DNA of 64,000 nucleotides, taken from IMG/VR virus record IMGVR_UViG_3300035180_000343, positions 32,001 to 96,000 of that record; one strand, 5' to 3'. Of the stretch, positions 12,948 to 62,214 are shown piece after piece (position 1 is the stretch's first letter; every line of letters begins with the position of its first letter). The DNA comes from a virus. The notes beneath the pieces are model-generated. The model was not told the DNA's origin. It made no database searches and saw only the letters and a list, made by a program, of their open reading frames with translations. The position numbers and the translations under genes were made by a program.

Positions 12948-12986
12948 CATATCAACACCGGAAGATAAGATAGGGTTTCAAGCCAC

Positions 12987-41388: not shown

Positions 41389-41567
41389 GACTTTTTCTGA
41401 ATTTTGTTCTTCAGAATCCACTTGTCTCCAAGTGTTTCAATTGCTTTTAATCGTTTCTGTTCAAGTCTATCGGCAGCATCTTCGTCGACTTTGATACGTT
41501 TAACTGAAATGTATTCTTCATCGTCGATAGCAGAAGCAGAGAAAAGATTCCTGAAAAAGTTAAACAT
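41385..41567 (-). CDS. Hypothetical protein
   Basis: TAATG-coupled to the PRTase. Confidence 0.55.
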   Translation of the reverse strand: MFNFFRNLFSASAIDDEEYISVKRIKVDEDAADRLEQKRLKAIETLGDKWILKNKIQKKS

Positions 41568-42346
41568 TATTCGATTCCTTTAATAATTGCATCACGACCA
41601 CGGCTCATCTTCTTTACGTCTGCCATTGTTGGGTGGAAACCTTGAACTAAAATTGGGTCGTCAAATCGATTTCCAGTAGAAAGCGAAATTAGACAACATA
41701 TCTTAGGAAGAACTTGGGCAAGAATATATTCATTTTCGACTCCATCGTCATCTCTGATATTAACTCTTGAACCCAAAGGAACTTCTTTAAGAAGCTCTGA
41801 CTCTAATTCTTCCCTCCGTTTAATAAGTTCCGAGATCTGATCGTCAATTGTTTCTATCGTTTCCGGCTGCTCGACATATTCGGATTCAAACGGTTGCACT
41901 ATCCATTGATCGATTGGAACATTTTGTTCAACCACGAAATCTGGGGAACATTTAGAATTTTCTTTTTGCCACAATGTTGCGATACGCCAGAAATACAAAT
42001 CAACATATGACTCGATTAAAACTCGCTTAATTTTGTTAAGAGTTTCTCCAGAATCGACAAGATCATCCACTATAAGAAAGTTTGTCTGCCCATTTTTGTT
42101 CATATCTGGCGGAAGTATTAGATCCGAAACCAAGACATTTCCTGTTTTCTTCGTTCCTTCATATGATTTAGCAACGACAAAAATCAATGGAATATTTAAT
42201 GCCTCACTGATTCGATTTGCGACATAATATCCACCTCGCATTACTGCGACTACATGGGTGAACTTATAATTCGAACCTTTGATTTTATCAATCAATTGAT
42301 CGCAAAGTTTATTATACTCATTCCAGCTTACATATCGTTTTTTCAT
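41567..42346 (-). CDS. Type I phosphoribosyltransferase (purine PRTase-like)
   Basis: VVAVMRGG, LIVDDLVDSGETL PRPP loop, WIVQPFE. Confidence 0.88.
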   Translation of the reverse strand: MKKRYVSWNEYNKLCDQLIDKIKGSNYKFTHVVAVMRGGYYVANRISEALNIPLIFVVAKSYEGTKKTGNVLVSDLILPPDMNKNGQTNFLIVDDLVDSGETLNKIKRVLIESYVDLYFWRIATLWQKENSKCSPDFVVEQNVPIDQWIVQPFESEYVEQPETIETIDDQISELIKRREELESELLKEVPLGSRVNIRDDDGVENEYILAQVLPKICCLISLSTGNRFDDPILVQGFHPTMADVKKMSRGRDAIIKGIE

Positions 42347-45126: not shown

Positions 45127-45226
45127 ACTTTTCTCCTGGCTAATGATTTTGTTTTATTTATCAGATGGCACCGTAAAACCTTGGCCTTTATGTCAGGGAT
45201 ATAAGGCGTGTTTTTAACTTGTTCCA

Positions 45227-45255
45227 AGTATATATTAGTAAAACCATTTTGTCAA
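45227..45255 (-). promoter_or_regulatory. Outward-facing sigma70 promoter in the element left end (TTGACA-17-TATACT)
   Basis: Same arrangement at 53753-53781 (TACACT) and 60858-60886 (TATACT). Confidence 0.7.
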
Positions 45256-45295
45256 GTGCTTTGACAATAATGAGTTCGTCAAAGTTGAACAATTA

Positions 45296-45303
45296 TATAA
45301 ATA
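45296..45303 (+). promoter_or_regulatory. T4 late-promoter consensus TATAAATA just upstream of tnpB
   Basis: Exact in all three copies (also 53821-53828 and 60926-60933), 5-7 nt before the ATG. Confidence 0.65.
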
Positions 45304-45310
45304 TACGTAT

Positions 45311-46579: not shown

Positions 46580-46604
46580 TTGACCATAAATTGACATTTT
46601 GATT
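46430..46604 (+). ncRNA. Putative omegaRNA (scaffold in the tnpB 3' end, guide from the right flank); equivalents in copies 2 and 3
   Basis: Conserved 3' segment in all copies ending at gtagttgac; established TnpB architecture; 5' boundary approximate. Confidence 0.6.
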
Positions 46605-47443: not shown

Positions 47444-47943
47444 TGTTCCAGTTCCGAGTAAAGAAGTCTAGGTCTAAACGAAAAACTATCGACCCCAACA
47501 TCTAAGAGTTTCCTATGTGTTTTGGTATTTGTGCCATGGCAATGACCATGCAAAAACAAATCAATTTCATCCCCAATCTTTTCAATATCTTTTGGATCGA
47601 TTGGACGATGTGACATGAAGAATGTGTTACCACCAACTTCTATTGTTGCACAATCCTGAATCTCAACCCATTCTAAATCAAGTGTTTTCTTCTTATCATG
47701 GTTCCCGATAATAAGAACCTTTTGTCCGTTCAATCTAGAAAATATTTCGGAATTCAGTTCGGTAGAAATTCCACATGAAAAATCCCCTAGATGAAACACC
47801 AGATCATCTGGTGATATCGATTCATTCCATCGTTGGATCATAGTTTCGTTCATTTCTTCCGATGTTTCGAATGGACGATTGCAGTATTTAATGATATTCC
47901 GATGCCCAAAATGTGTATCCGACGTAACCCAAATTTTACTCAT
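47440..47943 (-). CDS. Calcineurin-like metallophosphoesterase
   Basis: TSDTHFGH, HLGDF, GNHD, LHGHCH, DVGVD. Confidence 0.92.
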   Translation of the reverse strand: MSKIWVTSDTHFGHRNIIKYCNRPFETSEEMNETMIQRWNESISPDDLVFHLGDFSCGISTELNSEIFSRLNGQKVLIIGNHDKKKTLDLEWVEIQDCATIEVGGNTFFMSHRPIDPKDIEKIGDEIDLFLHGHCHGTNTKTHRKLLDVGVDSFSFRPRLLYSELEQ

Positions 47944-47944
47944 C

Positions 47945-48844
47945 TCAAACCTTTCTTTTAGAGTCTTTAAACTCTTTCGTCGTTACTTTAAGAGATTTGC
48001 CATTGATCGCAAGGACAATCCCTTCAATTTCTTTTCCAAACTTATCTTTTCCGTCGATATCAGCATTTAGAATCAACGTCGCAAGGTCTTCTTTTACTTT
48101 ATTGACAATAGCAAGCAAATTCTCTTTTTGAATTTTGTCGGCTGCTTTTCTACTTTTCAAAATTTCTATATGAGAATCATCAAAATTGACTAGAGGATCA
48201 ATAGTAGCATTTATATCCAATGAGTCTATTTTCATTGAAGTATCGGCAAATTTAATTTTATCATTGCTAAACTTGAACAAATTTTTCTTTATAGACTCTT
48301 GTTGATCTTTTGGCAACTGTTCGCCAGTTGAAGCAACAACAAAATCAATTGGAAAAATAGTCATCAAACTTCCGAGTTTTGTCTTGTCATATTTTATAGT
48401 GACAAACGTAATCCCAGTGTCGTCTTCGGTTGCCATTGGGTTATAAAATATCTCACATATAAGTTTAACGTCATTTGGGATTGCTGTCAAGAAGTCTGCC
48501 GATTTAAAAATGTCAAACATATCGTCATAGTGTTGAGCACGGATAACAATTTCGTCCTTTGCTCCTTTTGCTTTTGCATGAGTCGAGAATGCTTTTGGTT
48601 CAAATATCGGACCAGTTCTTGACCCCTCAACAAACACTTTTCCGTCTTTGTTTTTTCCAATACGAAATCCTAGTCCGTCTACTTTCAATGATACCGGAAT
48701 ATCTTTTAAAACCCCACCTAATTCAGATTTAAACGATTTTACGAGGGAGATGAATTCTTCCGGTTTCATCGCTTGTAGATGTTCCATTGTAGTTCGTTTT
48801 GTCTGGACTACGTCTTCATAAATGAACTGTCGAAATGTTTTCAA
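47945..48844 (-). CDS. ATP-dependent ligase-like (covalent nucleotidyltransferase) protein with CTS-like start
   Basis: Motif I SLKVDG, motif III ICEIF, motif IV EGIV, motif V LKV; MKTFRQFIYE start. Confidence 0.65.
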   Translation of the reverse strand: MKTFRQFIYEDVVQTKRTTMEHLQAMKPEEFISLVKSFKSELGGVLKDIPVSLKVDGLGFRIGKNKDGKVFVEGSRTGPIFEPKAFSTHAKAKGAKDEIVIRAQHYDDMFDIFKSADFLTAIPNDVKLICEIFYNPMATEDDTGITFVTIKYDKTKLGSLMTIFPIDFVVASTGEQLPKDQQESIKKNLFKFSNDKIKFADTSMKIDSLDINATIDPLVNFDDSHIEILKSRKAADKIQKENLLAIVNKVKEDLATLILNADIDGKDKFGKEIEGIVLAINGKSLKVTTKEFKDSKRKV

Positions 48845-50088
48845 AGTTGAAACCCCATCTTGTCTGCGGCGCGGCCATCGAGTGACCCTCTAACCTGATA
48901 CGATTTTGACCTAAGATATACTCTTGAGGACGACATATTATTCAATAAATCTTTTCCAGTTAAAACTTCCCATTTTGGGATACCAGTTGCGCCAATGTCT
49001 AGTTTTACATAAACTAAATCGGATGACAATGCATCTGAAATAAATGGTCTAAAATCTAACCTTGGGTCGGTTTTCGAATAAGTCTCAATCAATTGTCCAA
49101 CTACTTGACTCAGCCCAATTGTTGTAATGCCCTTATTCCAAAAATCAATCTTGGATGGGTCAACTGATTCAATCCACTTCATTGCCGCATACGGAATGAG
49201 TTCATCTTTTCTCGCGTTCTTTTGAACCCACGAAGAATCAAATGTCTTGAACTCTTTGAACTTCATTTCTTTCAGATATTCCCCAGCTTTTATAGGACCA
49301 ACCCAAGCAGTATTTGACTCGATCTCCCGAATTATATTCGTCATTGGATCATTAAACCACTTCGACTTCTTATCTAACATTGAAAGAAGATCGGAACCCT
49401 TGACGGTATTTGTATGTTTTGCTGCAGTCTTTGCAGATACATTTATTACGCCAGTTGACTCAATAATATAGTCGAGCAATGGTTCGTTTGGTCTTTTTGG
49501 AAATTCAACGATTGAATATTTGTTGGCAACCTTTCCGATTGTTGCAAACATATCATTTTCAACAATTGCAATCGGTCCGAGACATTCTCCAAAGTCCTTC
49601 ATCACTGATGCGATGTCAATATTCTTTCTATGTTCTTTGAAAAAATCAACCAACGTGGAATTTGGAATTTTGCCCAATTGATGAGAAATTAACATTGAAC
49701 AATAAGACCCAGTCATTCCTAATTTTAACTCGTTTGTATTTCCTTGTAAAGTCTCGACATATTTTGGATATTTCAGGGGTTGAGTTAGACCAAACTTATC
49801 GGGTTTCAGAACATTTTGAGGAAGACGAGTTGACGTCACTTCGATTTTCATAACAATGAATTCGGTTGGGCTTATTTCGATATATCCTTTGGATGATTTC
49901 AAAATGCCGGACCCGTTTGTTTTTCTCTTCCATTTTGGGTTGTGATCTAGAAGTGTGGTGATTGCTCCCGCTCGTTGTGCATTCGGCAAGAATATATGAT
50001 AAACCGTCTTCTTAGGTCTTCCTTGTGTCAGAACAGAAATATCAGACGCACCAGTGATTTCTTTTAGCTCTTCAACAAAATCTTTCAC
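48841..50088 (-). CDS. Putative PD-(D/E)xK-like endonuclease
   Basis: ECLG..FP..NEPLLDYII..NVSAK pattern. Confidence 0.45.
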   Translation of the reverse strand: MKDFVEELKEITGASDISVLTQGRPKKTVYHIFLPNAQRAGAITTLLDHNPKWKRKTNGSGILKSSKGYIEISPTEFIVMKIEVTSTRLPQNVLKPDKFGLTQPLKYPKYVETLQGNTNELKLGMTGSYCSMLISHQLGKIPNSTLVDFFKEHRKNIDIASVMKDFGECLGPIAIVENDMFATIGKVANKYSIVEFPKRPNEPLLDYIIESTGVINVSAKTAAKHTNTVKGSDLLSMLDKKSKWFNDPMTNIIREIESNTAWVGPIKAGEYLKEMKFKEFKTFDSSWVQKNARKDELIPYAAMKWIESVDPSKIDFWNKGITTIGLSQVVGQLIETYSKTDPRLDFRPFISDALSSDLVYVKLDIGATGIPKWEVLTGKDLLNNMSSSRVYLRSKSYQVRGSLDGRAADKMGFQL

Positions 50089-51209
50089 TTGTACCTCGCG
50101 TAGAAGGATTTCTTCATTTCGTCGAAGTCTTTAACGGATCCACCGAGTTTCTTAGTTAGAACGCTAATCATCGCATTCTTCTCATCGAGATCCTTGTCTG
50201 GATCTCCACGGTATAGTCCCTGTGCCGAATCTCCCCAGAGTGTATAAGCAAACCCAGTAACAATCGGCTTCCATGTGGACTTCGGAAGATTTTTTTGAAT
50301 GAGGTCGATAAGTCCCGTGAAACTACTAAATTGTTTGAGCTCGTCCGAAGATGGAGAATGTCCAAACCATTCTTTAAATACGAAATCTAGATCAGTGTTG
50401 CCAGGAGATTCTGTTGTCGACATTTCTCTATAATGTGGAATGTCGTTTGTCTTTATTTGTTTTCCAGAATCATCTTTGATTGGGGAAAGTTTGGTTCGTA
50501 GCCCACCAGTAACACTGAATGCGCGCTCACTTGAAAGGATTTCTTTATCTTTCCCTCTAGACGTCTTTGCTGGAATCAAAACCTTCTTAAGATTTGGAGC
50601 TTCCATTGCGCGCAGAAGATATTTGTGAGCAACTCCCTTAATACCTTGCTCCATATCTTCCCATGCTGAGGAATGACTAAACTGTGCCCATGGCGTCGGT
50701 TTGCCAGTTTTGTCGAATTCTACCAACTCCATATCAATCTGAATGTTGGTATCATATGGAACAAGTGTCCATAGAGTGATAAATTGTCCAGCCGATTTCT
50801 TATATCCAACGAATGTCAACGGGCCAAATGTTTCACCTTCGATACCAGAATTCAAGAATTTTTCAACAAACGGTTCAAGGTTGCCATCGACTTGAGTGTC
50901 AATATCTCCAACCGACTGTTTCACTTTAGAAAACTTTTCGTCTTCAATTTTCTTCAAGTCAAAGAAATGAAATGCAGAACCAGAAAGAAATTCTTTAGAC
51001 TTGAAAAGAGAATCGTTCCACAAATAAAGACCAGTCGACTTCGAAAATGCTTTATTGATTTCAGACAATCCCTTATCAATAACAGGGACGATTTCTTTTC
51101 TTGATAGTTTTGTCAGGTCAATTCGTTGTGCTTCGGCGTCTCCCAAACGAACATTTCCACCTTCTGAAACGAACTTTCTAAAACTTTTTAACACGAGATT
51201 TCCACCCAA
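50085..51209 (-). CDS. Pol-beta-superfamily nucleotidyltransferase with CTS-like segment
   Basis: LSGSA..GDIDTQVD, IQIDMEL; LKSFRKFVSE near the start; CATAAATA late-like motif upstream. Confidence 0.65.
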   Translation of the reverse strand: MGGNLVLKSFRKFVSEGGNVRLGDAEAQRIDLTKLSRKEIVPVIDKGLSEINKAFSKSTGLYLWNDSLFKSKEFLSGSAFHFFDLKKIEDEKFSKVKQSVGDIDTQVDGNLEPFVEKFLNSGIEGETFGPLTFVGYKKSAGQFITLWTLVPYDTNIQIDMELVEFDKTGKPTPWAQFSHSSAWEDMEQGIKGVAHKYLLRAMEAPNLKKVLIPAKTSRGKDKEILSSERAFSVTGGLRTKLSPIKDDSGKQIKTNDIPHYREMSTTESPGNTDLDFVFKEWFGHSPSSDELKQFSSFTGLIDLIQKNLPKSTWKPIVTGFAYTLWGDSAQGLYRGDPDKDLDEKNAMISVLTKKLGGSVKDFDEMKKSFYARYK

Positions 51210-51227
51210 AGTAATTTCCTTATCGTG

Positions 51228-51980
51228 TTATTTATGGACATTTCGATACTTGACAATCATATCGATCATAACTTGTTCGTCTTGGTTTGGATTCTCACAC
51301 TTTAAATAGGAATCCATTAAATCATTTGCAAACTTGGATGTGCTTGGATCGACTTTATAAACTTCGTCAATTCCATTCAACTTCATTACGAGAAACCGTT
51401 TGACGCATTGTTTACATTCGCCACATGGGACTCCATCATTATGCCAACAACTTGTAGTTTCTTTCAGTTCTGGAATGATTTCTTTTCCGAATGTCTCGAT
51501 AGCCCATTTTACGGTGTCAACCTTTGACATCTTCTCTTCGACGAACGGAAACCTAACTTTACATCCATTGATGAATGGAGATAGCACATATGACAATACT
51601 TCCGAAGTCATTGCCCTAAACTTTTCATTCTTGTCGGTTGCTTGTTCGTTGTCCTCGTCAAACAATGTCCCCATCCATACTTCATCTGGAAGTTCTTGGC
51701 TTGCGGCCAGAGTAGCAAATACAAGATTCCTTCCAGGAATATAGATAGCAGATGCAAACGGATCAGACTTCTTGGACACGGGACGAATACCAGCTGGAGA
51801 TAACCAATCAATAGTTCGAATCTCAACATATTCTGGAAGTCGGTCAATCTCAACCTCTTCGGAATCTGCTCCATGTGCATAGTAAATACACTTTACATCC
51901 GCATCTGGATAATTCTTCTCGGCATATTTCTTCATCAGGAAACTGTCCAACCCACCACTATACAAAATCACAATCTTCAT
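51228..51980 (-). CDS. queC: QueC-like 7-cyano-7-deazaguanine synthase (PP-loop ATPase)
   Basis: YSGGLDS, IPGRNLVF, TSCW..PCGECKQC Zn site. Confidence 0.85.
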   Translation of the reverse strand: MKIVILYSGGLDSFLMKKYAEKNYPDADVKCIYYAHGADSEEVEIDRLPEYVEIRTIDWLSPAGIRPVSKKSDPFASAIYIPGRNLVFATLAASQELPDEVWMGTLFDEDNEQATDKNEKFRAMTSEVLSYVLSPFINGCKVRFPFVEEKMSKVDTVKWAIETFGKEIIPELKETTSCWHNDGVPCGECKQCVKRFLVMKLNGIDEVYKVDPSTSKFANDLMDSYLKCENPNQDEQVMIDMIVKYRNVHK

Positions 51981-51999
51981 TTGGAATCCTTAAAAATAA

Positions 52000-52386
52000 T
52001 CATTTGTGCCTTACGTTCTCTTTAGTAACCAAATCGTGCACAATTCTAACAACTTTTACGTCAGGACACAACCTTTCAATTTCGTCGGCCTGGATTGGGT
52101 CGTCTTCGTAGTGAATTACTATTTTCATGTCAAAAATAGAGTTCAACAGATTGATGGTTTTTCCTTTATGAGTCCCAGACGACAATCTACTCTTTTTGTC
52201 GAATGGAAGTGGATTGAAGAAGGGGTAATTCATAATCCCCCTACTCTTCAACATCGCTATCGTTTCTGGAATTTCTTCAAACGACCTTCCAGTGATAATG
52301 ACATCGTTTTCTCTTGGAGTTAATCCAGGATATTCTCCCATGAAAATAACTCCGTCAATGTCATAACTCGCAATAGGATCATTCAT
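52000..52386 (-). CDS. HAD-superfamily phosphatase
   Basis: YDIDGVI, IITGRS, K, HYEDD motifs I-IV; overlaps the MIPS stop. Confidence 0.85.
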   Translation of the reverse strand: MNDPIASYDIDGVIFMGEYPGLTPRENDVIITGRSFEEIPETIAMLKSRGIMNYPFFNPLPFDKKSRLSSGTHKGKTINLLNSIFDMKIVIHYEDDPIQADEIERLCPDVKVVRIVHDLVTKENVRHK

Positions 52387-53665
52387 AGTCAGTCTTTCCA
52401 GCTTGAAATGTATATGGAAGATCTTTCGCCCTTGGCCGTTTGTCTTTTAGTTGAGGCTCAGTCAACTTTGTCAACACTCTCCTTGCAAGTGCATCACACT
52501 CAAACTTTGCATCGTTGGTTGAAAGTTGAAGAGGAGGAGTTTTCTGAGTCCAAGCAGAAGGACCACGCAAAAATCCAACGACTCCAAGTTCCGAAGCCAC
52601 TTTGCAGAATCGAATTGCCGAGATAACCACTCCACCGGAATTAGGAGAATCTTGAACCGACATTCGACATGCAAGCTCATAACGAGCTCCAGCAAATCCG
52701 TAAGCAACTATGTCGATATTACAAATCTTATTATCAGACCCAACATATTGTCCACCTGGTTTCTGATGAACAGTTAATGATGGGCCAGCATAGAGTGTCA
52801 TTCCGGCAATTGATTCATTTCGAACCGAGTTTTGTCCCTTCAATACGTTTTCTTTTGAAACGTGTTTACTATGGAGCCTATCTTTGCTCGACATATTTAA
52901 GAAATCGGTATTTGCCGTTCTACCAGTTCTAATATGTTCCTGACCCTGTGTGCTTCCCGCGCTCATATTAAGTTGAATATGCTGAGAAACTATAAGACCA
53001 GAATCGAGCATTGCTCCTTGGAGAACTTCGGAAAGTCTCGATGCTCCCCATGCCGACCGCATATCTGACCCAACAATTGTTAGCCCAGCATCAATAAATT
53101 TCTGTTCATATTCCATAGTCTCTTCGGTTGAAATTAGTGTCGGAATACAATTTACTACATGGCATTTTGCTTGAATTGCGGCGTCAATATAAAACCGACT
53201 TGCTTCTTCTGAACCAACTGGAAGGTAGTTAATTACTACGTCGACCTTATGATATTTTAAAAGATCGACAATTCGTTGGAACGGCTCGGCTGGAATTGCT
53301 CCAGTCCTAAATGAAACATCTTCTGGGAAATCTAGCATATAGGGAGCAACTCCGTCGAGCTCAGGTCCAGAGTAGACAATTGCTCCCTTTTCGACACACG
53401 CAGTCGGTCCAGTGTCAACAATCTGCCGAACGTGGTCCATCGCACAATTTGGTTTAGCGCGAAGTGCTTCGATTAGTGGACGGTTAACTTTTCGAATATC
53501 AACATCAAACCCACAAACGAATTCAATATCGTGAGCAGTATAACCCCCAATATCATGATACATCAACCCGACTTTATCGGTCGGGTTTTCATTGTAATAT
53601 TGGACTCCCTCAACTAAACTTTTTGCACAATTTCCAACACCAACAATCGCGACTCTGATTTTCAT
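52379..53665 (-). CDS. ino1: Myo-inositol-1-phosphate synthase
   Basis: VAIVGVGNCAKSLVEG, NYLPVGSEEA, GATD-equivalent GASRL, NTDFLNM, SVQDSPNSGG. Confidence 0.93.
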   Translation of the reverse strand: MKIRVAIVGVGNCAKSLVEGVQYYNENPTDKVGLMYHDIGGYTAHDIEFVCGFDVDIRKVNRPLIEALRAKPNCAMDHVRQIVDTGPTACVEKGAIVYSGPELDGVAPYMLDFPEDVSFRTGAIPAEPFQRIVDLLKYHKVDVVINYLPVGSEEASRFYIDAAIQAKCHVVNCIPTLISTEETMEYEQKFIDAGLTIVGSDMRSAWGASRLSEVLQGAMLDSGLIVSQHIQLNMSAGSTQGQEHIRTGRTANTDFLNMSSKDRLHSKHVSKENVLKGQNSVRNESIAGMTLYAGPSLTVHQKPGGQYVGSDNKICNIDIVAYGFAGARYELACRMSVQDSPNSGGVVISAIRFCKVASELGVVGFLRGPSAWTQKTPPLQLSTNDAKFECDALARRVLTKLTEPQLKDKRPRAKDLPYTFQAGKTDYE

Positions 53666-53687
53666 ACAATTTCCTTCATTATATCAG

Positions 53688-55111
53688 TTAGTGCCATAAA
53701 ATCTTGGTCTTTAGGCCAAAAATATAAGGCGTGGTTTTCAACTTGTTTTAATAGTGTATATTAGTGGAATGATTTTGTCAAGTGCTTTGACAAAATTATT
53801 TCGTCAAAGTTGAACAATTATATAAATACGTAATATGAAACAATTTATCTCGTACAAATATCGGATTTATCCAACAGAAGACCAACAAGTTCTTCTGAGT
53901 AAAACCTTTGGCTGTAAACGAGCGATTTTCAACCATTACCTTGAAATACAGGAAACTCGATTTAAAAACAAAGAACCTCGGTTAAGCAATTTCGACATCA
54001 ATAAAGACATTACCAAACTGAAGAAAGAAAAGGAATGGCTATATGAAGTTGATAATGCTGCATTACAATCTTCTGCTGAAGACTTAACAAAAGCATACGA
54101 CAATTTCTTCAAGTCGGTTACTGGTAAGAGAAAAGGTCCGAAGATATCTCCACCGAAGTTCAAGAACAAGAATTCGCGCCAATCATATAGAACTCACTAC
54201 GTTCACGTTAATGAAGACGGAACACTGCATATTCCGAAACTAAAGTCAGTCAAAGCAGCCATCCACAGAGAAATTCCAGAAGGATCGAAAATTAAATCGG
54301 CGACCGTTTCAAGAAATCCTGACGGAAGATATTATGCATCAATTTTAGTAGAAACAGAAGTAACATCAAGGCCGATGACCTATCGGGAAGTCGGTTGCGA
54401 TTTAGGTCTCAAGGATTTGTTAATTACCTCAAGTGGTATAAAATTCAAGAGGCCAGATGAATTGCCGAACATTGCGAGAACCAAGCAATTATTGAAGTTG
54501 AAGCAAAAACAGTTCGCGAGAACCGTTAAAGGTAGCAAAAATCACGAATCTTTAAGACTCCAAGTAGCACGGCTTTATTCGAAGAGCACAAGACAAAGAA
54601 ACGAATATTATCATCTAGTTAGTAGATACTTGGTTGATAATTACGATTCTATCTACGTTGAAGACTTGTCGAGTAAAAATATGTTACAAAACAGGAAGTT
54701 GAGTCGAGCAATCCACGAAGTGGCGTGGTCAACCTTGTCTGGGATGATCCAGTACAAATCATCTTGGGCTGGTAAAACTTATCATCGGATTGATCGTTGG
54801 TATCCAAGTAGCAAGACTTGCTCTTCTTGTGGTCATAAACTTGAAACACTTGACCTCGGCACCAGAGAATGGACTTGTCCGAACTGTGGAACTCATCATG
54901 ACCGTGATTTAAATGCTGCTATGAACATTCTTCATGTCGGACAATCCGACTGTTATGGAGAAGCAATAAAGTCGCATGCAATAGGCGACTTGGGACTAGA
55001 AATCCCATCGGCCCTACAGAAAATGACCATTAAAATCGAGAGATCCAATGCTAATGTGTTGGTTGGTCATGGGAGTGGGCAAGCCGCGTCCTTTAGGAAG
55101 CGGTAGTTGAC
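53688..55111 (+). mobile_element. tnpB-only IS200/IS605-family element, copy 2
   Basis: Shared left and right ends; sits between dpdA-like and ino1. Confidence 0.92.
53835..55106 (+). CDS. tnpB: RNA-guided endonuclease TnpB, copy 2
   Basis: Intact RuvC D-E-D and Zn finger; close paralog of copy 1. Confidence 0.96.
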   Translation: MKQFISYKYRIYPTEDQQVLLSKTFGCKRAIFNHYLEIQETRFKNKEPRLSNFDINKDITKLKKEKEWLYEVDNAALQSSAEDLTKAYDNFFKSVTGKRKGPKISPPKFKNKNSRQSYRTHYVHVNEDGTLHIPKLKSVKAAIHREIPEGSKIKSATVSRNPDGRYYASILVETEVTSRPMTYREVGCDLGLKDLLITSSGIKFKRPDELPNIARTKQLLKLKQKQFARTVKGSKNHESLRLQVARLYSKSTRQRNEYYHLVSRYLVDNYDSIYVEDLSSKNMLQNRKLSRAIHEVAWSTLSGMIQYKSSWAGKTYHRIDRWYPSSKTCSSCGHKLETLDLGTREWTCPNCGTHHDRDLNAAMNILHVGQSDCYGEAIKSHAIGDLGLEIPSALQKMTIKIERSNANVLVGHGSGQAASFRKR

Positions 55112-55116
55112 CAAGC

Positions 55117-56388
55117 TCAAAAGAAACTACTGATGTCGACTTGCTTTTCTTTCACTGCAACTGATTTCATTGACGATTTAAAAATGTTCGACCATTCGTC
55201 AAAATCTGTTTTTGTATCTACATCTTGAAACGAACGATACATCGAAAACTTTTTCATGTCAACAACATCCTCAAGTCTTGGAGCAGACAAGAATGTTTTT
55301 ATAGCTTCCAACAATGCCAAACTCGATGTAACAGCAAATGCCGTCCATACTCTAACAATCTCATTCTTATCTTTTCCAGCAGCAATATGTTTTTCGTTGC
55401 TGCTGTTGATTACATTGTGTAGGTGCTTTGGGCTATGGACTCCATCCAACTGGTCTATCTCTTTGATTTTGTTGAATATTTTTTCATATGCTACTTGGTC
55501 ATAATGCCGTCCAAATGAAAATTGATTTTGGTCTGGACCGTCCGCAACATAAAAACAACCTTTTGTGATTCCACTTGTATGAGATGTCGAATCGAAACTT
55601 AAAATAACATCTGAATTTCTACCATCTCTAAAGCATACCAAGTTTGGTACGAGCCGACGCATTGATCCAACACCCAAAAGGTGAATCTGTTTGTTTTTTA
55701 GATTATATTTTCGAAGTATTTGGAAACTAGCGAATGTTCGAACAAAGGATTCATATTCTCCATTTCCAAGTGAGGTTGAACCAAGAGAAATTCCACCTAA
55801 GTAGTCATGATAATCTGGGGGAAGTTCGTTCAGAATAATATCCGCCCATTGTAAAAAAGTGTCGACATCATTTCCCTGAACAATCATCAATGGTTTGCTA
55901 ACTGTTCCGAATTCTCTAAAGGCGTCGATTTGCTCTTTCAGATTAGCTGCCGAATCCTTCGCACACTTTACGAAAATATCCTTATCGAAGAATCTGTCAC
56001 CAGTGCTACCAATCTTTGAGGAAGCAGTTGGGGTATAAAGAGGAATCTCGTCAAACGACATCGCAATTGTTGAGTTCTTTGCTTGAGACTCATATATTTT
56101 TCGCTTGATGCCAGAGTCAATCTTCGACCCACGAGTGATAATTTGAAGACCGCCAGAATCAGCATGAATATCACAAATTACATCTCGTAGATATTTGTTC
56201 AGTACATCTCCTCCCGATTTTTCCGTAAATGCGTTATATAACATTCCAAGAGAATATCCTTTTGCCTTTACCTTTTTGAATAAATTGCGAAGGAACTCGG
56301 TATTCTCTTCTGTATAAGACGAATTCATCAAGAGTTTTGGATATCCAACTCCAGACATAATGTAGTGGAACCGATCAACATCAACCAT
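55117..56388 (-). CDS. dpdA: DpdA/TGT-like base-exchange transglycosylase
   Basis: ADSGGLQI, MSFDEIP, IVQGN, IHLLGVG and SFDSTSH are TGT-fold motifs; adjacent to folE. Confidence 0.75.
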   Translation of the reverse strand: MVDVDRFHYIMSGVGYPKLLMNSSYTEENTEFLRNLFKKVKAKGYSLGMLYNAFTEKSGGDVLNKYLRDVICDIHADSGGLQIITRGSKIDSGIKRKIYESQAKNSTIAMSFDEIPLYTPTASSKIGSTGDRFFDKDIFVKCAKDSAANLKEQIDAFREFGTVSKPLMIVQGNDVDTFLQWADIILNELPPDYHDYLGGISLGSTSLGNGEYESFVRTFASFQILRKYNLKNKQIHLLGVGSMRRLVPNLVCFRDGRNSDVILSFDSTSHTSGITKGCFYVADGPDQNQFSFGRHYDQVAYEKIFNKIKEIDQLDGVHSPKHLHNVINSSNEKHIAAGKDKNEIVRVWTAFAVTSSLALLEAIKTFLSAPRLEDVVDMKKFSMYRSFQDVDTKTDFDEWSNIFKSSMKSVAVKEKQVDISSFF

Positions 56389-57065
56389 TATTTTTGCCTT
56401 GCTAAAGAAAGAAATTCTTGTCGAGCACTTGGATTATCTCTAAACGCACCCGACAAGAAACTTGTCGATGTTGTTGCTCCAGTTGACTCAACACCTCTCC
56501 ATGAAACGCAAAAATGTTCACATTCCATTACAACGGCGACATCGTCTGTCTCACAAATAAATTTTACTGTTTCACCAATCTGTTGGGTCTGAAGTTCTTG
56601 GAGTGTCGGGCGGCGAGAAAAATATTCAACAATTCGTGGGAGTTTAGATAGTCCCAATGCAATATTCTTGGGCTTATAAGCAATTGTGCATGTTCCAACA
56701 ATCGGAACAATATGATGAGAGCAGCTACTTTTCACTGGAATATTATGCTCGATAACAATCTCATCATAATGGTGGTCATTTGGAAACCCAGTACACTTGG
56801 GGAAATTTTCGGGTTTCAGACCCCACATTGTTTCTTTAACTAACATCTTCGCAACTCGTTTTGGAGTGTCAACATGGGATGGGTTTGTCATATCCATACC
56901 AATAGTCGTCAACATTTCCAAAACATTCTGTTGAATTTTCTCAATTTTTTCATCGTCTGGAACATTTAACATTGCTTCATCTACCGCACTTTCGAGGTGC
57001 AAAGATTTTAAATGTTGAAGAACCTTCAATCCAAGAACTGGATCACATTTCGTTGATTGTAGCAT
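56388..57065 (-). CDS. folE: GTP cyclohydrolase I
   Basis: TPKRVAKM, SSCSHHIVP, GLSKLPRIV..RRP.LQE, CEHFCV..RGV, T.TS. Confidence 0.95.
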   Translation of the reverse strand: MLQSTKCDPVLGLKVLQHLKSLHLESAVDEAMLNVPDDEKIEKIQQNVLEMLTTIGMDMTNPSHVDTPKRVAKMLVKETMWGLKPENFPKCTGFPNDHHYDEIVIEHNIPVKSSCSHHIVPIVGTCTIAYKPKNIALGLSKLPRIVEYFSRRPTLQELQTQQIGETVKFICETDDVAVVMECEHFCVSWRGVESTGATTSTSFLSGAFRDNPSARQEFLSLARQK

Positions 57066-57094
57066 TCGAGTTTCCTTTTTGTTTTCGAATTTAA

Positions 57095-57123
57095 ATTGTA
57101 ACTTAAACTTGAGGAATTGTCAA
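57095..57123 (-). promoter_or_regulatory. Sigma70-type promoter TTGACA-17-TACAAT heading the folE operon
   Basis: Spacing counted directly. Confidence 0.75.
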
Positions 57124-57149
57124 GTCCTCATACCTACTTATGCGAGGTT

Positions 57150-58985
57150 TTACACCTCAATTGATGAGAAATCTTTCTTCTTTTTCAATGTGCTAAATCC
57201 ACTTGGGCCACTTTTTTCTTCTTTTTCGTCTGGACTTCCCTTCTCGAGTATTCTACCGTTAGCAGGTTGATCGACGTTGTAGAGAAGCATCTTTGCCCGA
57301 TCAACTCCGACAACGAATCTCTTGTTCATCACTGGATCGGAAAACCGATTCTTCAACTGCTTAAACATAATCATGTTCTGTTCATCAAGTGCTTCGGTTC
57401 TAATGATAGCAAATATTGCATCTGCAATCATTGCTGTTCCGAACGAATCTGAGATTTCGGTGATTTCCGAATCGGAATTATTGTTACCAGATCTGGAGAA
57501 CTGTGTACTACTTATAATCGGAACATTAAATTCAATTGCCAACCCACGCAATTCTTCTGCAATCGATTTTACCATACTATAACTATTAACATTATTCCCT
57601 GCTTTATATCGAACAGACGACATAATATTAACATAATCAACCATTATAATATCTGGAACAAATTCTTGTTTCAATTGAAGGTCATTTAGAAGTGCTCGAA
57701 AATGTGCAACATTTGCGCCAGCAGTTGGATATTCTTTAACCACCATCTTTCCAGTTATTGTTGGCAGAACCTCGGACATTCGTTGAACATATTTTTCCTT
57801 TGACCACTTCTCAAGCTCGCCAAGATTCGTTTGCAAAAGATTTGCGTCAATACGTTCGAGGATGCGTTCTTCAGCCATCTCTAGTGTGATATAAAGAACA
57901 TTTTTCCCAGACTTGATATAAGACGATGCGAGGCTACATTTTACCATGCTTTTGCCAGCATTGGTATTATGTGAGCTAACATTTTCTGTCCAGTATCTAT
58001 GATTAGGATGGTCAATTACAACGTCAACAATTGGAATTCGATTCCCCGTCTTTTGTATTACGTATTCCGTTCGATATCCAGATTTTGTTAGAATATTTAG
58101 ATGGGGAATATTATTCGCGTCAAGATCAAGCAGTTCTTTTGCAGAAAACCACCCAGATACAGTTTCGAATAAATGATTCTCATTACACCTAATCAAGTGA
58201 CCGTCTATTTGGAGGATATATTCGTCCCATATCCCCTTATCAACATATTCCGCAATCGGAACCCATCCATCGGGCGAGTCAATTTCAACATCGGAATTAT
58301 TCATCAACTGTTGAATTCTACCAACCGTTGAGTTCAACTCGTGCCAATGTTGCGTAGACTTTTGTCGAGTTCTAATCTTAACTTTAGTATCTGGATGAAC
58401 ACAACCCGCTATTAGCAACGTCAATGTTTTCTTAGGCAATCCACCACCGGTAATGGTATTGAGCATGTCGATATCAAACGGAATTCGAACCGATTCCGCA
58501 TGCAACTTCTCAAACCGTTCTTCAACGTCAGTTAATGACTGCCCAACCGATTTATTAAAAGATACTGATAATGCATCTTTTAGAATATCCGGAAGTTGAT
58601 CTCGGCTTTGTTCTTCGTCGTTAATAATTTCAATACATTTTAGAACAGAATTATAAACACTTCGTTCTTTAATCCAGGCTTCGGCGTGTTCGACTAACCA
58701 TGCCTGGCTTGGCTCCTTAATTCTCGATGATGCAACCTCAGCAAGGACGCACTCCGCTTGTGTTACAGAATCTTCTGAAAGTTTATTGTTCGTTCGTAAA
58801 GAAACAATAATCTCATCTTTTGACGGCAGAACATTGTATTTAGAAACAAACTCGTCCACTGCTTTGAAAACAGTTTTTTTGCTTGTTTCTGTGAAATATT
58901 CCTCCTTCAAAAAAGGAAGAACATGCTTAGCAAAGTCTGGGTTAAAGAAGAGACCATGTAAAACTTGCTCTTCGATTCCAGACAT
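57150..58985 (-). CDS. gp41: Replicative helicase gp41 (DnaB-like) with intein
   Basis: IPFDI..LN..TGGG..K.L..G..GKS, YITLEM.E..I..RID, VDYVNI, AEELRGLA, LKNR. Confidence 0.95.
   Translation of the reverse strand: MSGIEEQVLHGLFFNPDFAKHVLPFLKEEYFTETSKKTVFKAVDEFVSKYNVLPSKDEIIVSLRTNNKLSEDSVTQAECVLAEVASSRIKEPSQAWLVEHAEAWIKERSVYNSVLKCIEIINDEEQSRDQLPDILKDALSVSFNKSVGQSLTDVEERFEKLHAESVRIPFDIDMLNTITGGGLPKKTLTLLIAGCVHPDTKVKIRTRQKSTQHWHELNSTVGRIQQLMNNSDVEIDSPDGWVPIAEYVDKGIWDEYILQIDGHLIRCNENHLFETVSGWFSAKELLDLDANNIPHLNILTKSGYRTEYVIQKTGNRIPIVDVVIDHPNHRYWTENVSSHNTNAGKSMVKCSLASSYIKSGKNVLYITLEMAEERILERIDANLLQTNLGELEKWSKEKYVQRMSEVLPTITGKMVVKEYPTAGANVAHFRALLNDLQLKQEFVPDIIMVDYVNIMSSVRYKAGNNVNSYSMVKSIAEELRGLAIEFNVPIISSTQFSRSGNNNSDSEITEISDSFGTAMIADAIFAIIRTEALDEQNMIMFKQLKNRFSDPVMNKRFVVGVDRAKMLLYNVDQPANGRILEKGSPDEKEEKSGPSGFSTLKKKKDFSSIEV
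57966..58403 (-). mobile_element. Contiguous 146-aa mini-intein in the gp41 Walker A
   Basis: CVHPDT start, RCNENH block B, HPNHRYW..SSHN end, +1 Thr; no endonuclease domain. Confidence 0.92.
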
Positions 58986-59311
58986 TATTCTTCCTCATTG
59001 ATGAATTTAGTGGATTCAAGCAGATGTTTGAGTACGATATCATAAATGATATCTTGAATTTTCAATTTAATATCGCCTTCCAATTCAACATCTTCTTCGT
59101 CCAAATTAAATGTATTGTATTCAAAACTCAAGACACCGTCTTTCAACTCAAATGTTTTAGAGTTAAGTTTGACCAAGACTTTCTCGTCCTCTAACGCAAT
59201 TAAGATATCTTGATCCAACGAAGAAATTGCATACTTAACGTTTGCTAATTTATCATCAACTGCCTTTATAAGTTCGTCGATGGAGGTAATGTTTTCATAA
59301 GAGTTACTCAT
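58985..59311 (-). CDS. Hypothetical protein between uvsX and gp41 (gp40 position)
   Basis: ATGA-type coupling to uvsX; acidic. Confidence 0.6.
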   Translation of the reverse strand: MSNSYENITSIDELIKAVDDKLANVKYAISSLDQDILIALEDEKVLVKLNSKTFELKDGVLSFEYNTFNLDEEDVELEGDIKLKIQDIIYDIVLKHLLESTKFINEEE

Positions 59312-60368
59312 TCGTTGTCTCCTCTGGTTGGGCCTCATCTGTATCTACTTCTCCTGCACCATAACAAAACAATGGTTTCATTTTCTCATTGATGAGATCC
59401 AATATTTCCTTTGTAAAATACTTCTCGGGGTCTCGATTTATTTGCGTTCCAAACACCTTTCTACCATCTGGGAGAACAAGCCGAGTCGAATCCTTCTTGA
59501 AGACTCCACATTTTTCCGCAATATCAACTAAACCATAGTATCGTTGTAGGCCGGTGTCGTGCCGAATCAAGACGGAAACCTCTGCTCCAGTCTTAGTCAA
59601 CCTAGATTTATAAAGATTCGCGCGAATATTCAATCCAACCAGTTGGCCATCTTCTTTCTCTTTGCGCTTGTTCAGGATAACAATTGTCGATGCCGCATAC
59701 TTGACACCACTTCCACCACCTATCTCGGCTGGACTATACATATCAAAAACGGCGTAGACATGGTTGGTCAAAATCATCGGGACTTTTGCTTGTGCCAGCT
59801 TCAGTGTTAAAATCCTGAATGCTCCCTTAATAAGCTGCGTCCGAGTCATGTCTTTTACATCTTTTCCCTCTGTAGTATCCTTTACCTCTTTATTAGTCGA
59901 CAACATGCCAAGAGAATCTAGAACAAACAACATTCGTGGCCGAGATTCCTTCTTTGCTTCGATATATTTGTCAAGAATCCTAACTGCCTGAGTCCGAAAG
60001 TCTTCAACTGTTGCAACTGGAATAATGAATATGCGCTTTGAATCAATCCCACGACTTTCAATATCTTCCTTTGTAATTGCACCTTCTGATTCAAAATAAA
60101 AGCAAGCAGAATCGGGATGTGCTTCCAAGAAGTTTTTTGTTCCAGTCAAGACCGCAAAAGATTTTCCCGAGGCTTCCTCACCAGCTAAAGCAGTCACTTT
60201 CCCAACTGGATATCCTTTGTAAATATCCCCAGAAATCAAAGCATTGAGCGCATATGAACCAGAGTCGATATATTCCGTTATATCCCCACTCATTACACCG
60301 TCACATACTGCTTGTGCCATGTTGTTCTTTGTTTCTTTTACCAAACTATTCCATAGTGCGTCACTCAT
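59304..60368 (-). CDS. uvsX: RecA-like recombinase UvsX
   Basis: IDSGSYALNALISG, AGEEASGKS, FESEGA, DSLGMLST.KE, GGGSG.KYAAS. Confidence 0.95.
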   Translation of the reverse strand: MSDALWNSLVKETKNNMAQAVCDGVMSGDITEYIDSGSYALNALISGDIYKGYPVGKVTALAGEEASGKSFAVLTGTKNFLEAHPDSACFYFESEGAITKEDIESRGIDSKRIFIIPVATVEDFRTQAVRILDKYIEAKKESRPRMLFVLDSLGMLSTNKEVKDTTEGKDVKDMTRTQLIKGAFRILTLKLAQAKVPMILTNHVYAVFDMYSPAEIGGGSGVKYAASTIVILNKRKEKEDGQLVGLNIRANLYKSRLTKTGAEVSVLIRHDTGLQRYYGLVDIAEKCGVFKKDSTRLVLPDGRKVFGTQINRDPEKYFTKEILDLINEKMKPLFCYGAGEVDTDEAQPEETTNE

Positions 60369-60762: not shown

Positions 60763-60792
60763 GATTTATTCCTTCAAAACCATATTTATCAG

Positions 60793-62214
60793 GTGGCGCC
60801 GTAAAACCTTGGCCTTCAGGCCAGGGATATAAGGCGTGCTTTTTAACTCGTTCCAATAGTATATGTTAGTGAAACCATTTTGTCAAGTGCTTCGACGAAA
60901 TAATTTCATCAGAATTAAATAATTGTATAAATACGTATATGAAACAATTACTCGCATTCAAATATCGGATTTACCCGACAAAGGATCAAGAAATCCTCTT
61001 GAGTAAAACCTTTGGCTGCAAGCGAGCAATCTTCAATCATTACCTAGAAGTGCAGCAAACCAGATACAAAAACAAAGAACCTCGGTTAAGCAATTTCGAC
61101 ATCAACAAAGACATCACCAAACTAAAAGATGAGAAGGAATGGTTAAGGGAAGTCGATTCGGTTGCTCTACAATCTTCTGCTGAAGATCTAACAAAAGCAT
61201 ATGACAATTTCTTCAAATCCGTAACTGGTAAAAGAAAAGGTCCAAAGATTTCGCCACCGAAGTTCAAGAACAAGAATTCACGTCAGTCGTATCGAACTCG
61301 TAATGTTCGAATTAATGAAGACGGTTCGTTACAAATACCGAAACTAAAGTCAGTCAAAGCAGCCATCCATAGAGAAATCCCAGAAGGATCGGTGATCAAG
61401 ACAACGACCATTTCGAGGAATCCAGATGGAAGATATTATGCATCAATTTTAGTAGAAACAGAAGTAGCACTGCAACCAATGACCCATAGGGAAGTCGGTT
61501 GCGACCTCGGGTTAAAGGATTTGCTTATCACCTCAAGAGGTATAAAATTTAAAAGACCAGATGAATTACCGAACATTGCGAGAACCAAGCAATTGTTAAA
61601 AGCAAAGCAAAAACAGTTCGCAAGAACTGAAAAGAGTAGCAAAAATCACGAATCTTTAAGACTTCAAGTGGCACGTTTATATTCAAAGGTCACCCGACAA
61701 AGAAATGAATATTATCATCTAGTTAGTAGATACTTGGTTGATAACTATGACTCCATCTATGTCGAAGACTTGTCGAGTAAGAACATGCTACAAAACAGGA
61801 AGTTGAGTCGAGCGATTCATGAGGTAGCTTGGTCAACCTTATCTGGGATGATCCAATATAAATCATCTTGGGCTGGTAAAACTTATCATCGGATTGATCG
61901 TTGGTACCCAAGCTCAAAGACCTGTTCTAGTTGTGGTCATAAACTTGAAACACTTGACCTCGGCACCAGAGAATGGACTTGTCCAGATTGCGGAACTCAT
62001 CATGATCGTGATTTGAATGCTGCTATGAACATTCTTCAGGTCGGTCAAGCCGACTGCTACGGAGAAGCAATAAAGTCGCATGCAATAGGCGACTTGGGAG
62101 AAATCCCATCGGCCCTACAGAAAATGATCATTAAAATCGAGAGATCCAATGTTGATACGTTGGTTGGTCATGGGAGTGGGCAAGCCGCGTCCTATAAAGG
62201 ACGCGGTAGTTGAC
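60793..62214 (+). mobile_element. tnpB-only IS200/IS605-family element, copy 3
   Basis: Left end gtggcgccgtaaaaccttggccttcaggccagggatataaggcg; right end gcggtagttgac. Confidence 0.92.
60939..62213 (+). CDS. tnpB: RNA-guided endonuclease TnpB, copy 3
   Basis: Intact RuvC D-E-D and Zn finger. Confidence 0.96.
   Translation: MKQLLAFKYRIYPTKDQEILLSKTFGCKRAIFNHYLEVQQTRYKNKEPRLSNFDINKDITKLKDEKEWLREVDSVALQSSAEDLTKAYDNFFKSVTGKRKGPKISPPKFKNKNSRQSYRTRNVRINEDGSLQIPKLKSVKAAIHREIPEGSVIKTTTISRNPDGRYYASILVETEVALQPMTHREVGCDLGLKDLLITSRGIKFKRPDELPNIARTKQLLKAKQKQFARTEKSSKNHESLRLQVARLYSKVTRQRNEYYHLVSRYLVDNYDSIYVEDLSSKNMLQNRKLSRAIHEVAWSTLSGMIQYKSSWAGKTYHRIDRWYPSSKTCSSCGHKLETLDLGTREWTCPDCGTHHDRDLNAAMNILQVGQADCYGEAIKSHAIGDLGEIPSALQKMIIKIERSNVDTLVGHGSGQAASYKGRGS

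Follow-up and report, generated by a model that had tools for sequence, protein, structure and literature searches.

Eight 7-deazaguanines are known from phage DNA, namely dPreQ0, dADG, dG+, dPreQ1, mdPreQ1, fdPreQ1, dDG and dCDG (PMC6884629, PMC10516641), and none of them carries a sugar alcohol. The DpdA2 enzymes tested experimentally, those of Vibrio phages VH7D and nt-1 among them, are promiscuous and insert preQ1, preQ0 and some 7-carboxy-7-deazaguanine (CDG; PMC10516641). QueC-family ligases are also known from bacterial defence, where Cap9 of type IV CBASS and QatC of QatABCD attach carboxy-deazaguanine to the N-terminus of a protein (PMC13329287, PMC11996544). For thymidine, Lee et al. 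describe hypermodification in phages ViI, M6 and PaMx11 by a 5-hydroxymethyldeoxyuridine (5-hmdU) DNA kinase together with an amino-acid:DNA transferase or aGPT-Pplase. Here we analyse a stretch of 64,000 nucleotides (the window), bases 32001-96000 of the 129-kb IMG/VR virus record IMGVR_UViG_3300035180_000343, which is estimated to be about 71% complete. The phage is T4-like, with a family B DNA polymerase, UvsX and a gp41-type helicase on either side of a cluster in which genes for a cyclitol-phosphate synthase and a phosphatase lie among genes for 7-deazaguanine synthesis and insertion. Our preferred explanation, which we put forward tentatively as quite possible, is that the cluster encodes a 7-deazaguanine DNA-modification system with an added cyclitol branch.

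Results

Predicted enzymes of the cluster

All five pathway enzymes of the cluster are present and apparently intact. Their open reading frames lie on the minus strand in the order folE, dpdA-like, myo-inositol-phosphate synthase (MIPS), HAD and queC, exactly as a preliminary description of this DNA had it:

56388..57065, minus strand: folE, GTP cyclohydrolase I, 225 residues
55117..56388, minus strand: DpdA2-type DNA guanine transglycosylase, 423 residues
52379..53665, minus strand: MIPS-family cyclitol-phosphate synthase, 428 residues
52000..52386, minus strand: capless (C0) HAD-superfamily phosphatase, 128 residues
51228..51980, minus strand: divergent QueC-family PP-loop ATP-dependent enzyme of a MIPS-linked phage subclade, 250 residues

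In the pathway that we propose, FolE, QueD and QueE would convert GTP into CDG, while the MIPS-family enzyme would make a cyclitol phosphate, most likely inositol phosphate. The QueC-family enzyme would adenylate the CDG carboxylate despite the loss of two substrate-facing motifs. As acceptor it would use a hydroxyl on the cyclitol or on its phosphate, in place of ammonia or alongside it, so that an ester of cyclitol and CDG is formed; the HAD enzyme would strip the phosphate, before or after coupling. DpdA2 would then insert the finished base, or would insert CDG with coupling following later on the DNA, and so bulky an adduct would protect the phage from restriction enzymes and from further defences directed at DNA.

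Firstly, we examined the deazaguanine branch. FolE matches Pfam PF01227 (GTP_cyclohydroI, 3.5e-51) and phrog_2197, and passes the cut-off of the NCBIfam equivalog NF006824 (215.4 bits vs 202), which bears out the identity first given to it. The DpdA-like protein gave zero matches to Pfam, TGT included, at E 0.01; it matches phrog_10773 (1e-83), and a profile of 12 homologues matches bacterial TGT structures weakly (E 8e-4). Within these 12 homologues D77 (in DSGGxQ), D113 and D266 are invariant and align on the D102, D156 and D280 motifs of Zymomonas mobilis TGT; the QG motif is aligned with bacterial TGT as well, and D266 is followed by S. Over residues 7-275 the protein is 30-33% identical to proteins of Vibrio phages VH7D, nt-1 and KVP40, and tblastn against the VH7D and nt-1 DpdA2 enzymes, which are experimentally tested members of the subfamily (PMC10516641), gives 30-31% over residues 9-275 (E 4e-28 to 5e-30). 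Its earlier description as DpdA-like can thus be narrowed to the DpdA2 subfamily of the TGT superfamily, and it is predicted by homology to exchange guanine in DNA for a deazaguanine base. QueD (PTPS domain) and QueE (radical SAM) are encoded on the same strand 3 and 7 kb past the window end, so that the predicted route from GTP to CDG is complete. Genes for a ThyX-type thymidylate synthase and a dCMP deaminase (97849-98499 and 104533-105018 of the genome, past the window end) flank those for QueD and QueE; the phage uses ThyX and not the thymidylate-synthase-like hydroxymethylase that adjoins the MIPS and HAD genes in pyrimidine-type relatives. None of QueF, ArcS, DpdL, DpdM and DpdN is found among the annotated neighbours, no search by name having been made for them.

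Secondly, we examined the two enzymes of the cyclitol branch. The MIPS-family protein aligns over its full length with Mycobacterium tuberculosis Ino1 (1GR0; residues 2-389 on 15-360, E 1.4e-54), in agreement with its first assignment. Its score against TIGR03450 lies below the equivalog cut-off (219.7 bits vs 638) and that against Pfam PF01658 lies above the threshold (34.7 vs 27). The NAD-binding motif VAIVGVGNCA occupies residues 5-14, and the GxGN Rossmann, NxDF, SKxxSK, DxK, DSPNS and K..PP motifs are at least 98% conserved in 88 phage homologues; we take their catalytic roles to be those of the motifs in the yeast and Archaeoglobus fulgidus enzymes. The next-best solved relative is the aristeromycin five-membered-cyclitol-phosphate synthase 6K96 (1.2e-29), which takes another hexose phosphate and forms a five-membered ring, and therefore the substrate of the window enzyme cannot be read from its sequence. 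Most likely, the 428-residue protein is a MIPS that makes inositol phosphate from glucose-6-phosphate.

The HAD protein carries all four motifs of a HAD phosphatase (D9-I-D11-G-V, T32, K74 and E94-D95-D96), and among 30 homologues D9 and D11 of motif I do not vary, nor does K74 of motif III, while conservation of T32 (II) and E94-D95-D96 (IV) is at least 90%. Its AlphaFold2 model (pLDDT 94) has a Rossmann-like core without a cap insertion; motifs and fold together uphold the phosphatase identity. The best matches of the model are the 3'-phosphatase domains of Pnkp1 (4XRP, Z 12.6) and T4 Pnkp (5UJ0, Z 12.3), with an rmsd of 2.3-2.5 over 111 residues, while many other HAD proteins give Z 7-10, about 8 being typical. 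Since these closest structures are polynucleotide 3'-phosphatases, the model suggests that the enzyme may act on a base-linked or DNA-linked adduct, the phosphate perhaps being removed after coupling.

Thirdly, we examined the QueC-family protein, the only one encoded in the 129 kb. It scores above the Pfam gathering threshold (PF06508, 52 bits vs 22) and below that of TIGR00364 (51.9 bits vs 150.3). Foldseek places its AlphaFold2 model (pLDDT 90) closest to QueC (3BL5 and 2PG3), then to Cap9 (9NTO), LarE and QatC. The ATP loop SGGLDS (residues 8-13) is conserved in 16 and 39 homologues, with S8, G10, L11, D12 and S13 invariant and G9 at least 90% conserved. The VPxRN-type motif IPGRN (81-85) and the zinc site C178-x7-C186-x2-C189-x2-C192 are also invariant, the latter with a spacing one residue under the canonical C(x)8CxxCxxC. 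In Escherichia coli QueC, Y35 (of YxQxHxxE), R99 (of VPxRN) and the aromatic Y131 (of YPDC) are essential (PMC13329287). Aligned to 2PG3, the window enzyme has H36-G-A-D-S-E-E in place of YxQxHxxE, so that the Tyr is an invariant His and the motif His is gone, and A-T115-D116-K117 in place of YPDC, with TDK invariant across the whole phage clade. Hence the QueC identity given in the preliminary description needs a qualification: the fold, the ATP loop, the RN motif and the zinc site are those of the family, but two substrate motifs of canonical QueC are absent and the protein falls in a separate deep clade, apart from Gat-QueC. Loss of YPDC as a mark of MIPS-linked enzymes was considered and ruled out, as a MIPS-free sister clade shares it.

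Linkage of one QueC lineage to MIPS

We compared the cluster with about 100 related phage contigs (L numbers below). A query with the single QueC protein gave just two near-identical contigs, and alignment-based queries were used for the wider set of 77 phage loci with a QueC-like gene. In the tree of these loci a single supported clade unites the MIPS-linked QueCs (SH-aLRT 96). Among its 20 rows MIPS lies directly upstream in 18, one contig ends at the HAD gene, and one, L132, is an exception with QueE upstream. The order MIPS-(methyltransferase)-HAD-queC is constant in the clade, while the positions of folE, dpdA and queE vary. The folE-MIPS-HAD-queC-dpdA-queE cassette is also found in cultured Stenotrophomonas phages of the genus Menderavirus, cultured carriers being Moby, Mendera, IME-SM1 and Ps15. 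Menderavirus alone among 50,697 cultured-phage records has a close QueC relative (55%), the next being Gat-QueC domains at no more than 26%; by megablast, the 5.8-kb region matched none of 50,697 phage records.

The MIPS genes tell another history. An AU test rejects a single clade for those adjacent to queC (dlnL 194, p 6e-40), and those of the window, L080 and L088 nest among the MIPS of pyrimidine clusters. For the QueCs, one clade is acceptable (p 0.33) and the MIPS topology is rejected (p 6e-4). Because the two trees are incongruent, the simplest reading is that one QueC lineage gained a MIPS partner, has kept one ever since, and has swapped it at least three times with copies from pyrimidine cassettes. 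That adjacency would have been kept through repeated swaps argues for a functional coupling of QueC and MIPS, with the pairing under selection, and one QueC clade bound to a repeatedly replaced partner is a stronger argument than co-occurrence counts alone. If MIPS is exchanged between cassettes in this way, the kits would therefore yield the same product in all contexts.

The cassette is further elaborated in relatives. An S-adenosylmethionine methyltransferase lies between MIPS and queC in some, and an FkbM-type methyltransferase between MIPS and HAD; one relative with the 5-hmdU-kinase context also has a methyltransferase between MIPS and HAD, and L100 has a GT1 glycosyltransferase directly after queC. 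Such tailoring genes fit a tailored small-molecule donor and suggest methylated or glycosylated variants of the cyclitol. Tailoring genes in the kits of relatives are found at L091:9404-10000, L099:8948-9610, L013:11904-12722 and L100:10795-12192.

The MIPS and HAD kit in other phages

Seen from the MIPS side, the association is looser. We examined the neighbours of the best 80 of 221 close relatives of the window MIPS in IMG/VR: the MIPS and HAD pair is nearly constant among them, queC is nearby in 4 contigs, and about 70 of the 80 have neither queC nor dpdA nearby. The preliminary description had staked its reading on a recurrent linkage of phage MIPS genes to queC, dpdA and folE. For most MIPS genes this linkage does not exist; it does exist for the QueC subclade, in which 18 of the 19 informative members are preceded by MIPS. 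Elsewhere the kit keeps company with one of two other sets of genes, either a thymidylate-synthase-like gene, DUF6552, the 5-hmdU DNA kinase, an uncharacterised 335-residue protein and a C5 methylase, or a Tet/JBP oxygenase, an amino-acid:DNA transferase and a P-loop kinase. In these pyrimidine clusters it adjoins an ATP-dependent activator, the 5-hmdU DNA kinase or the P-loop kinase, and we draw a parallel with its place here beside an adenylating enzyme. The cultured phages RP13 and Cr30 have MIPS and HAD, and QueC, DpdA and FolE are found nowhere in either; the same holds for a jumbo phage with a complete genome of 359 kb, its MIPS sharing 85% identity with the window MIPS. RP13 DNA is reported to be heavily modified, its structure being unsolved. 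By its gene neighbours, the kit is a separable module that always stands inside a DNA base-modification cluster of one of three kinds. An Acb1-type anti-CBASS phosphodiesterase homologue (Pfam PF23474, 8.7e-28) is encoded a few genes from the kit in L092 (11272-11817), L094 (12420-12896) and L001, which is RP13 (12631-13221).

These observations bear on a plainer explanation, in which the phage has ordinary deazaguanine DNA (dPreQ0, dADG or dCDG) made by a canonical or amide-forming QueC, while MIPS and HAD make inositol for host metabolism, another acceptor, signalling or anti-defence, the genes merely sharing an early or middle region by the replication genes. Most MIPS and HAD pairs do occur without QueC, DpdA and FolE, and the pair always lies in a plastic region near uvsX, gp41 and gp43; MIPS has its own promoter in relatives that lack the TnpB insertion described below; the QueC motif changes are common to the MIPS-free sister clade, and the Pfam QueC gathering score is still passed. 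Set against this, MIPS stays directly upstream in all but one of the 19 informative members of the QueC subclade while the other pathway genes move, the partner has been swapped several times with adjacency retained, the pair always occupies a base-modification cluster beside an ATP-dependent activating enzyme, and two motifs that are essential in canonical QueC are gone. On balance we regard ordinary deazaguanine DNA with an unrelated inositol supply as rather unlikely.

A supply of cyclitol to a pyrimidine hypermodification encoded elsewhere in the genome was also considered. It is ruled out for the 129 kb, which contain no homologue of the 5-hmdU kinase, c3, C5-methylase, thymidylate-synthase-like, Tet/JBP, amino-acid:DNA transferase or P-loop kinase genes. 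Because these genes are absent, deazaguanine is the only visible acceptor in the sequenced part of the genome.

Genes downstream of queC

Three genes without assigned function follow queC on the same strand (50085-51209, 48841-50088 and 47945-48844). The first, right after queC on the minus strand, encodes 374 residues and belongs to phrog_19290, of unknown function; a language-model look-up places it near viral clusters of which one is named nucleotidyltransferase and another has NTP_transf_2 on one third of its members. A homologue is present in L012, and in Menderavirus as well, elsewhere in the genome. Four genes downstream of queC, a cytidylyltransferase-like gene (46616-47443, minus strand, 275 residues) overlaps a gene for a calcineurin-like metallophosphoesterase (47440-47943, minus strand, 167 residues); the two could serve NAD salvage or the nucleotide activation of a phosphorylated alcohol.

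These genes matter for a second alternative, in which the cyclitol does reach deazaguanine or DNA by a way other than QueC or a CDG ester, either through an unrecognised transferase acting after insertion or as a phosphodiester-linked inositol phosphate, with QueC giving ADG or preQ0. It would suit this reading that the capless HAD is most like 3'-phosphatase domains of polynucleotide enzymes, whose target is nucleic acid and not a small molecule, as would the three downstream genes with their one weak nucleotidyltransferase lead, the cytidylyltransferase-like gene, and the GT1 glycosyltransferase after queC in L100. The downstream genes, in contrast, are not conserved across MIPS-queC loci, and queC is the only gene that always adjoins the kit. 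We consider attachment by another enzyme improbable. As candidates for a missing transferase, the three genes were set aside: they have no Pfam or NCBIfam matches, the nucleotidyltransferase lead is weak, and they are not conserved.

The sister QueC clade and a phosphoribosyltransferase

In the sister QueC clade a purine-type phosphoribosyltransferase (PRTase) stands directly upstream of queC instead of MIPS, often with a cap-bearing HAD before it. Loci with this PRTase-queC arrangement are L133, L135, L139-L141, L143, L144, L155, L163 and L167 (and L104, L106 and L107). We take the arrangement of PRTase and HAD to resemble steps of toyocamycin biosynthesis (ToyH, ToyI); the sister-clade PRTase may perform a nucleotide-level step or the salvage of guanine freed by DpdA. 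The window has a PRTase too:

41567..42346, minus strand: purine-type phosphoribosyltransferase, 259 residues, a possible accessory

This gene lies 9 kb downstream of queC on the same strand. Its product matches Pfam PF00156 (2.7e-19), has the purine PRTases GpT-1, GpT-2 and XGPRT as its best solved relatives, carries a C-terminal extension of about 100 residues without known nature, and is 31% identical to the queC-adjacent PRTase of L106. Homologues adjoin folE or sit directly upstream of queC in related loci. It is possible that the window PRTase is an accessory of the system, in guanine salvage or deazapurine nucleotide formation.

A third alternative is that the product of the cluster is a free small molecule that acts on the host, with no cyclitol in the DNA. 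It would be a deazapurine pseudo-nucleoside or another compound of nucleoside type, made by a route like those to toyocamycin or aristeromycin. In its favour, the second-best solved relative of the MIPS is the aristeromycin synthase 6K96, the sister QueC clade has HAD and purine PRTase directly upstream of queC, and this phage itself encodes a purine PRTase. Weighing on the other side, DpdA2 is present here and, as far as the contigs reach, in most related loci, the kit is joined elsewhere to DNA-directed enzymes (5-hmdU DNA kinase, Tet/JBP and amino-acid:DNA transferase), and no enzyme for N-alkylation by a cyclitol was seen. We hold a free small molecule to be very improbable.

Gene layout and the TnpB insertion

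The following elements lie in and around the cluster:

57095..57123, minus strand: sigma-70-like promoter before folE, TTGACA-17-TACAAT, 11/12, a consensus match only and the best site in 50000-59500
53690..55111, plus strand: TnpB-only IS200/IS605-type element, with the tnpB open reading frame at 53835-55106
53753..53781, minus strand: second promoter-like site, within the end of the TnpB element and upstream of MIPS, TTGACA-17-TACACT, 10/12
45159-46586, plus strand: further copy of the TnpB-only element
60787-62214, plus strand: further copy of the TnpB-only element

Read directly, the folE stop and the dpdA start form TAATG, as had been noted before, and MIPS and HAD overlap by 8 bases, ATGAATGA, again as first described. 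A spacer of 19 bases, which contains AAGGA, separates HAD from queC. The promoter proposed at 57095-57123 is indeed the best match in the region, but it is probably not the sole promoter for the run from folE to queC, since the second site (53781-53753) precedes MIPS; across the region there are 28 promoter-like sites vs 23.1 +/- 4.1 in shuffles, that is, no enrichment. Two relatives free of TnpB, L012 and L011, have TTGACA-17-TACAAT directly before MIPS, in the same intergenic place as the second site of the window. Thus the run from folE to queC is probably not one unit under one promoter. Because an internal promoter stands before MIPS in the TnpB-free relatives and was displaced by the insertion, the ancestral layout was probably two units, folE-dpdA and MIPS-HAD-queC, and not one operon; in the window, the promoter-like site in the TnpB element end may drive MIPS. 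A conserved GC-rich putative hairpin, GGCAGCTACTCACTTCGGTGCC...CTGCCTTCGG, follows the promoter just before the MIPS start in these relatives (L012:6041-6145 and L011:6053-6410), and in the window the TnpB element occupies the place of this stretch. An Rfam scan of the whole window, for the preQ1 riboswitch in particular, found nothing.

The TnpB protein scores 320.7 bits against NCBIfam guided_TnpB (NF040570; cut-off 100) and has the Pfam domains HTH_OrfB, OrfB_IS605 and a Cas12f1-like TNB zinc-ribbon; no TnpA was seen next to the TnpB elements of the window. The ends of the insertion, at 53690 and 55111, are within 2 bases of those first given (53688-55111). L012 and L011, with flanks 96% identical to those here, lack the element and have 105 or 358 bases in its place, so that by this comparison the insertion between dpdA and MIPS is recent. 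The three TnpB elements of the window are about 85% identical over about 1430 bases, the one between dpdA and MIPS being taken as 53682-55113 in this comparison, and all are opposite in strand to the surrounding phage genes. At the dpdA/MIPS intergenic site L011 has a solo element-end remnant in opposite orientation; because this remnant sits at the same site, the site looks like a repeated target of TnpB elements.

Discussion

A non-ammonia nucleophile is plausible for the window QueC because Cap9 and QatC, both structural neighbours of its model, ligate CDG to a protein amine. Several points nevertheless weigh against a cyclitol branch as we propose it. We infer both the cyclitol as nucleophile and the cyclitol on DNA from sequence and its analysis. 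An ester of a sugar alcohol is chemically less robust than the known DNA adducts, and no dedicated transferase was identified in the genome, which is about 71% complete. The product of the MIPS may not be myo-inositol phosphate, because its score lies far under the equivalog cut-off and, relative to 1GR0, two insertions lie close to active-site motifs. L100 has no HAD gene between MIPS and queC, and ATDKN in place of YPDC is invariant in the MIPS-free sister QueC clade as well. Finally, the MIPS and QueC clade trees are quick trees with groups named after inspection, and the association of QueC with MIPS may have a single origin, with few independent events on the QueC side.

Weighing these points, we regard the prediction of a cyclitol-bearing base within a variant deazaguanine system as well-founded but unproven. 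A wider proposal seems to us possible, if slightly more doubtful than the cyclitol branch itself: phage DNA would hold a 7-deazaguanine conjugated to a cyclitol, such as CDG esterified with inositol, made by an O-nucleophile QueC ligase, the kit would feed T, C and G routes, and 'inositol-DNA' would be an undescribed class of hypermodification, widespread in phages of water and soil. If true, this would add a new class of bulky purine adduct, extend the QueC scaffold to a new reaction (O-acylation, vs amidation or nitrile formation) and give inositol a new biological use. There would be consequences, too, for phage evasion of restriction enzymes, CRISPR and DNA glycosylases, and for the poor sequencing of such genomes. 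The prediction is directly testable, with contrasts, as cultured Menderavirus phages carry the cassette and RP13 and Cr30 carry the kit without deazaguanine genes.

The preliminary description knew of no inositol-bearing deazaguanine, and our literature search for inositol linked to deazaguanine, DNA hypermodification or 5-hmdU likewise found no paper. The main texts of PMC6884629 and PMC10516641 make no mention of inositol or of these phages, and no cluster of this kind appears in the 2026 survey of the QueC family. The Ps15 paper keeps MIPS separate from the queuosine cluster and lists it as a stray gene of bacterial-like type.

Among described systems, Cap9 and QatC share with the window QueC the fold, the ATP loop and the zinc site. 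They belong to bacterial defence and have a protein amine as target, whereas the window QueC is a phage gene beside cyclitol synthesis and DpdA. Moreover, Cap9 keeps YxQ and YxDC, which the window QueC does not, and QatC has long extensions that it lacks. None of CD-NTase, QatA, QatB and QatD is found among the Pfam matches of the 20 genes around queC, where the neighbours are FolE, DpdA2, MIPS, HAD, helicase and UvsX.

The Gat-QueC of phage 9g, which makes dG+, is the nearest cultured-phage QueC relative outside Menderavirus (about 26%), and there too a QueC domain works with a module that provides what is to be added. In Gat-QueC this module is a fused class-II glutamine amidotransferase that delivers ammonia, whereas here separate MIPS and HAD genes stand in its place; the window protein accordingly has the QueC domain only (250 residues), the Gat-QueCs of 9g, CA8 and StAugustine having 462-471.

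Thymidine hypermodification is alike in that an ATP-activated base is attacked by a small-molecule nucleophile, and in that the MIPS and HAD kit lies beside the kinase in many relatives. It differs in its acceptor, T or C and not 7-deazaguanine, and in its activating enzyme, and its genes are absent from this 129 kb. Compared with Ino1 (1GR0) and inositol monophosphatase, the window has full-length homology with the NAD, Lys and Asp motifs kept and a phosphatase next to the synthase. Unlike in that pair, the synthase scores one third of the equivalog cut-off and has two insertions, and the phosphatase is a 128-residue capless HAD and not of the inositol monophosphatase family. The closest likeness in gene content is with the phage deazaguanine systems, whose FolE, QueD, QueE, QueC-family enzyme and DpdA (of the DpdA2 subfamily) are all encoded here; what sets this locus apart from them is a divergent QueC clade with a cyclitol-phosphate synthase and a HAD phosphatase inserted directly upstream.

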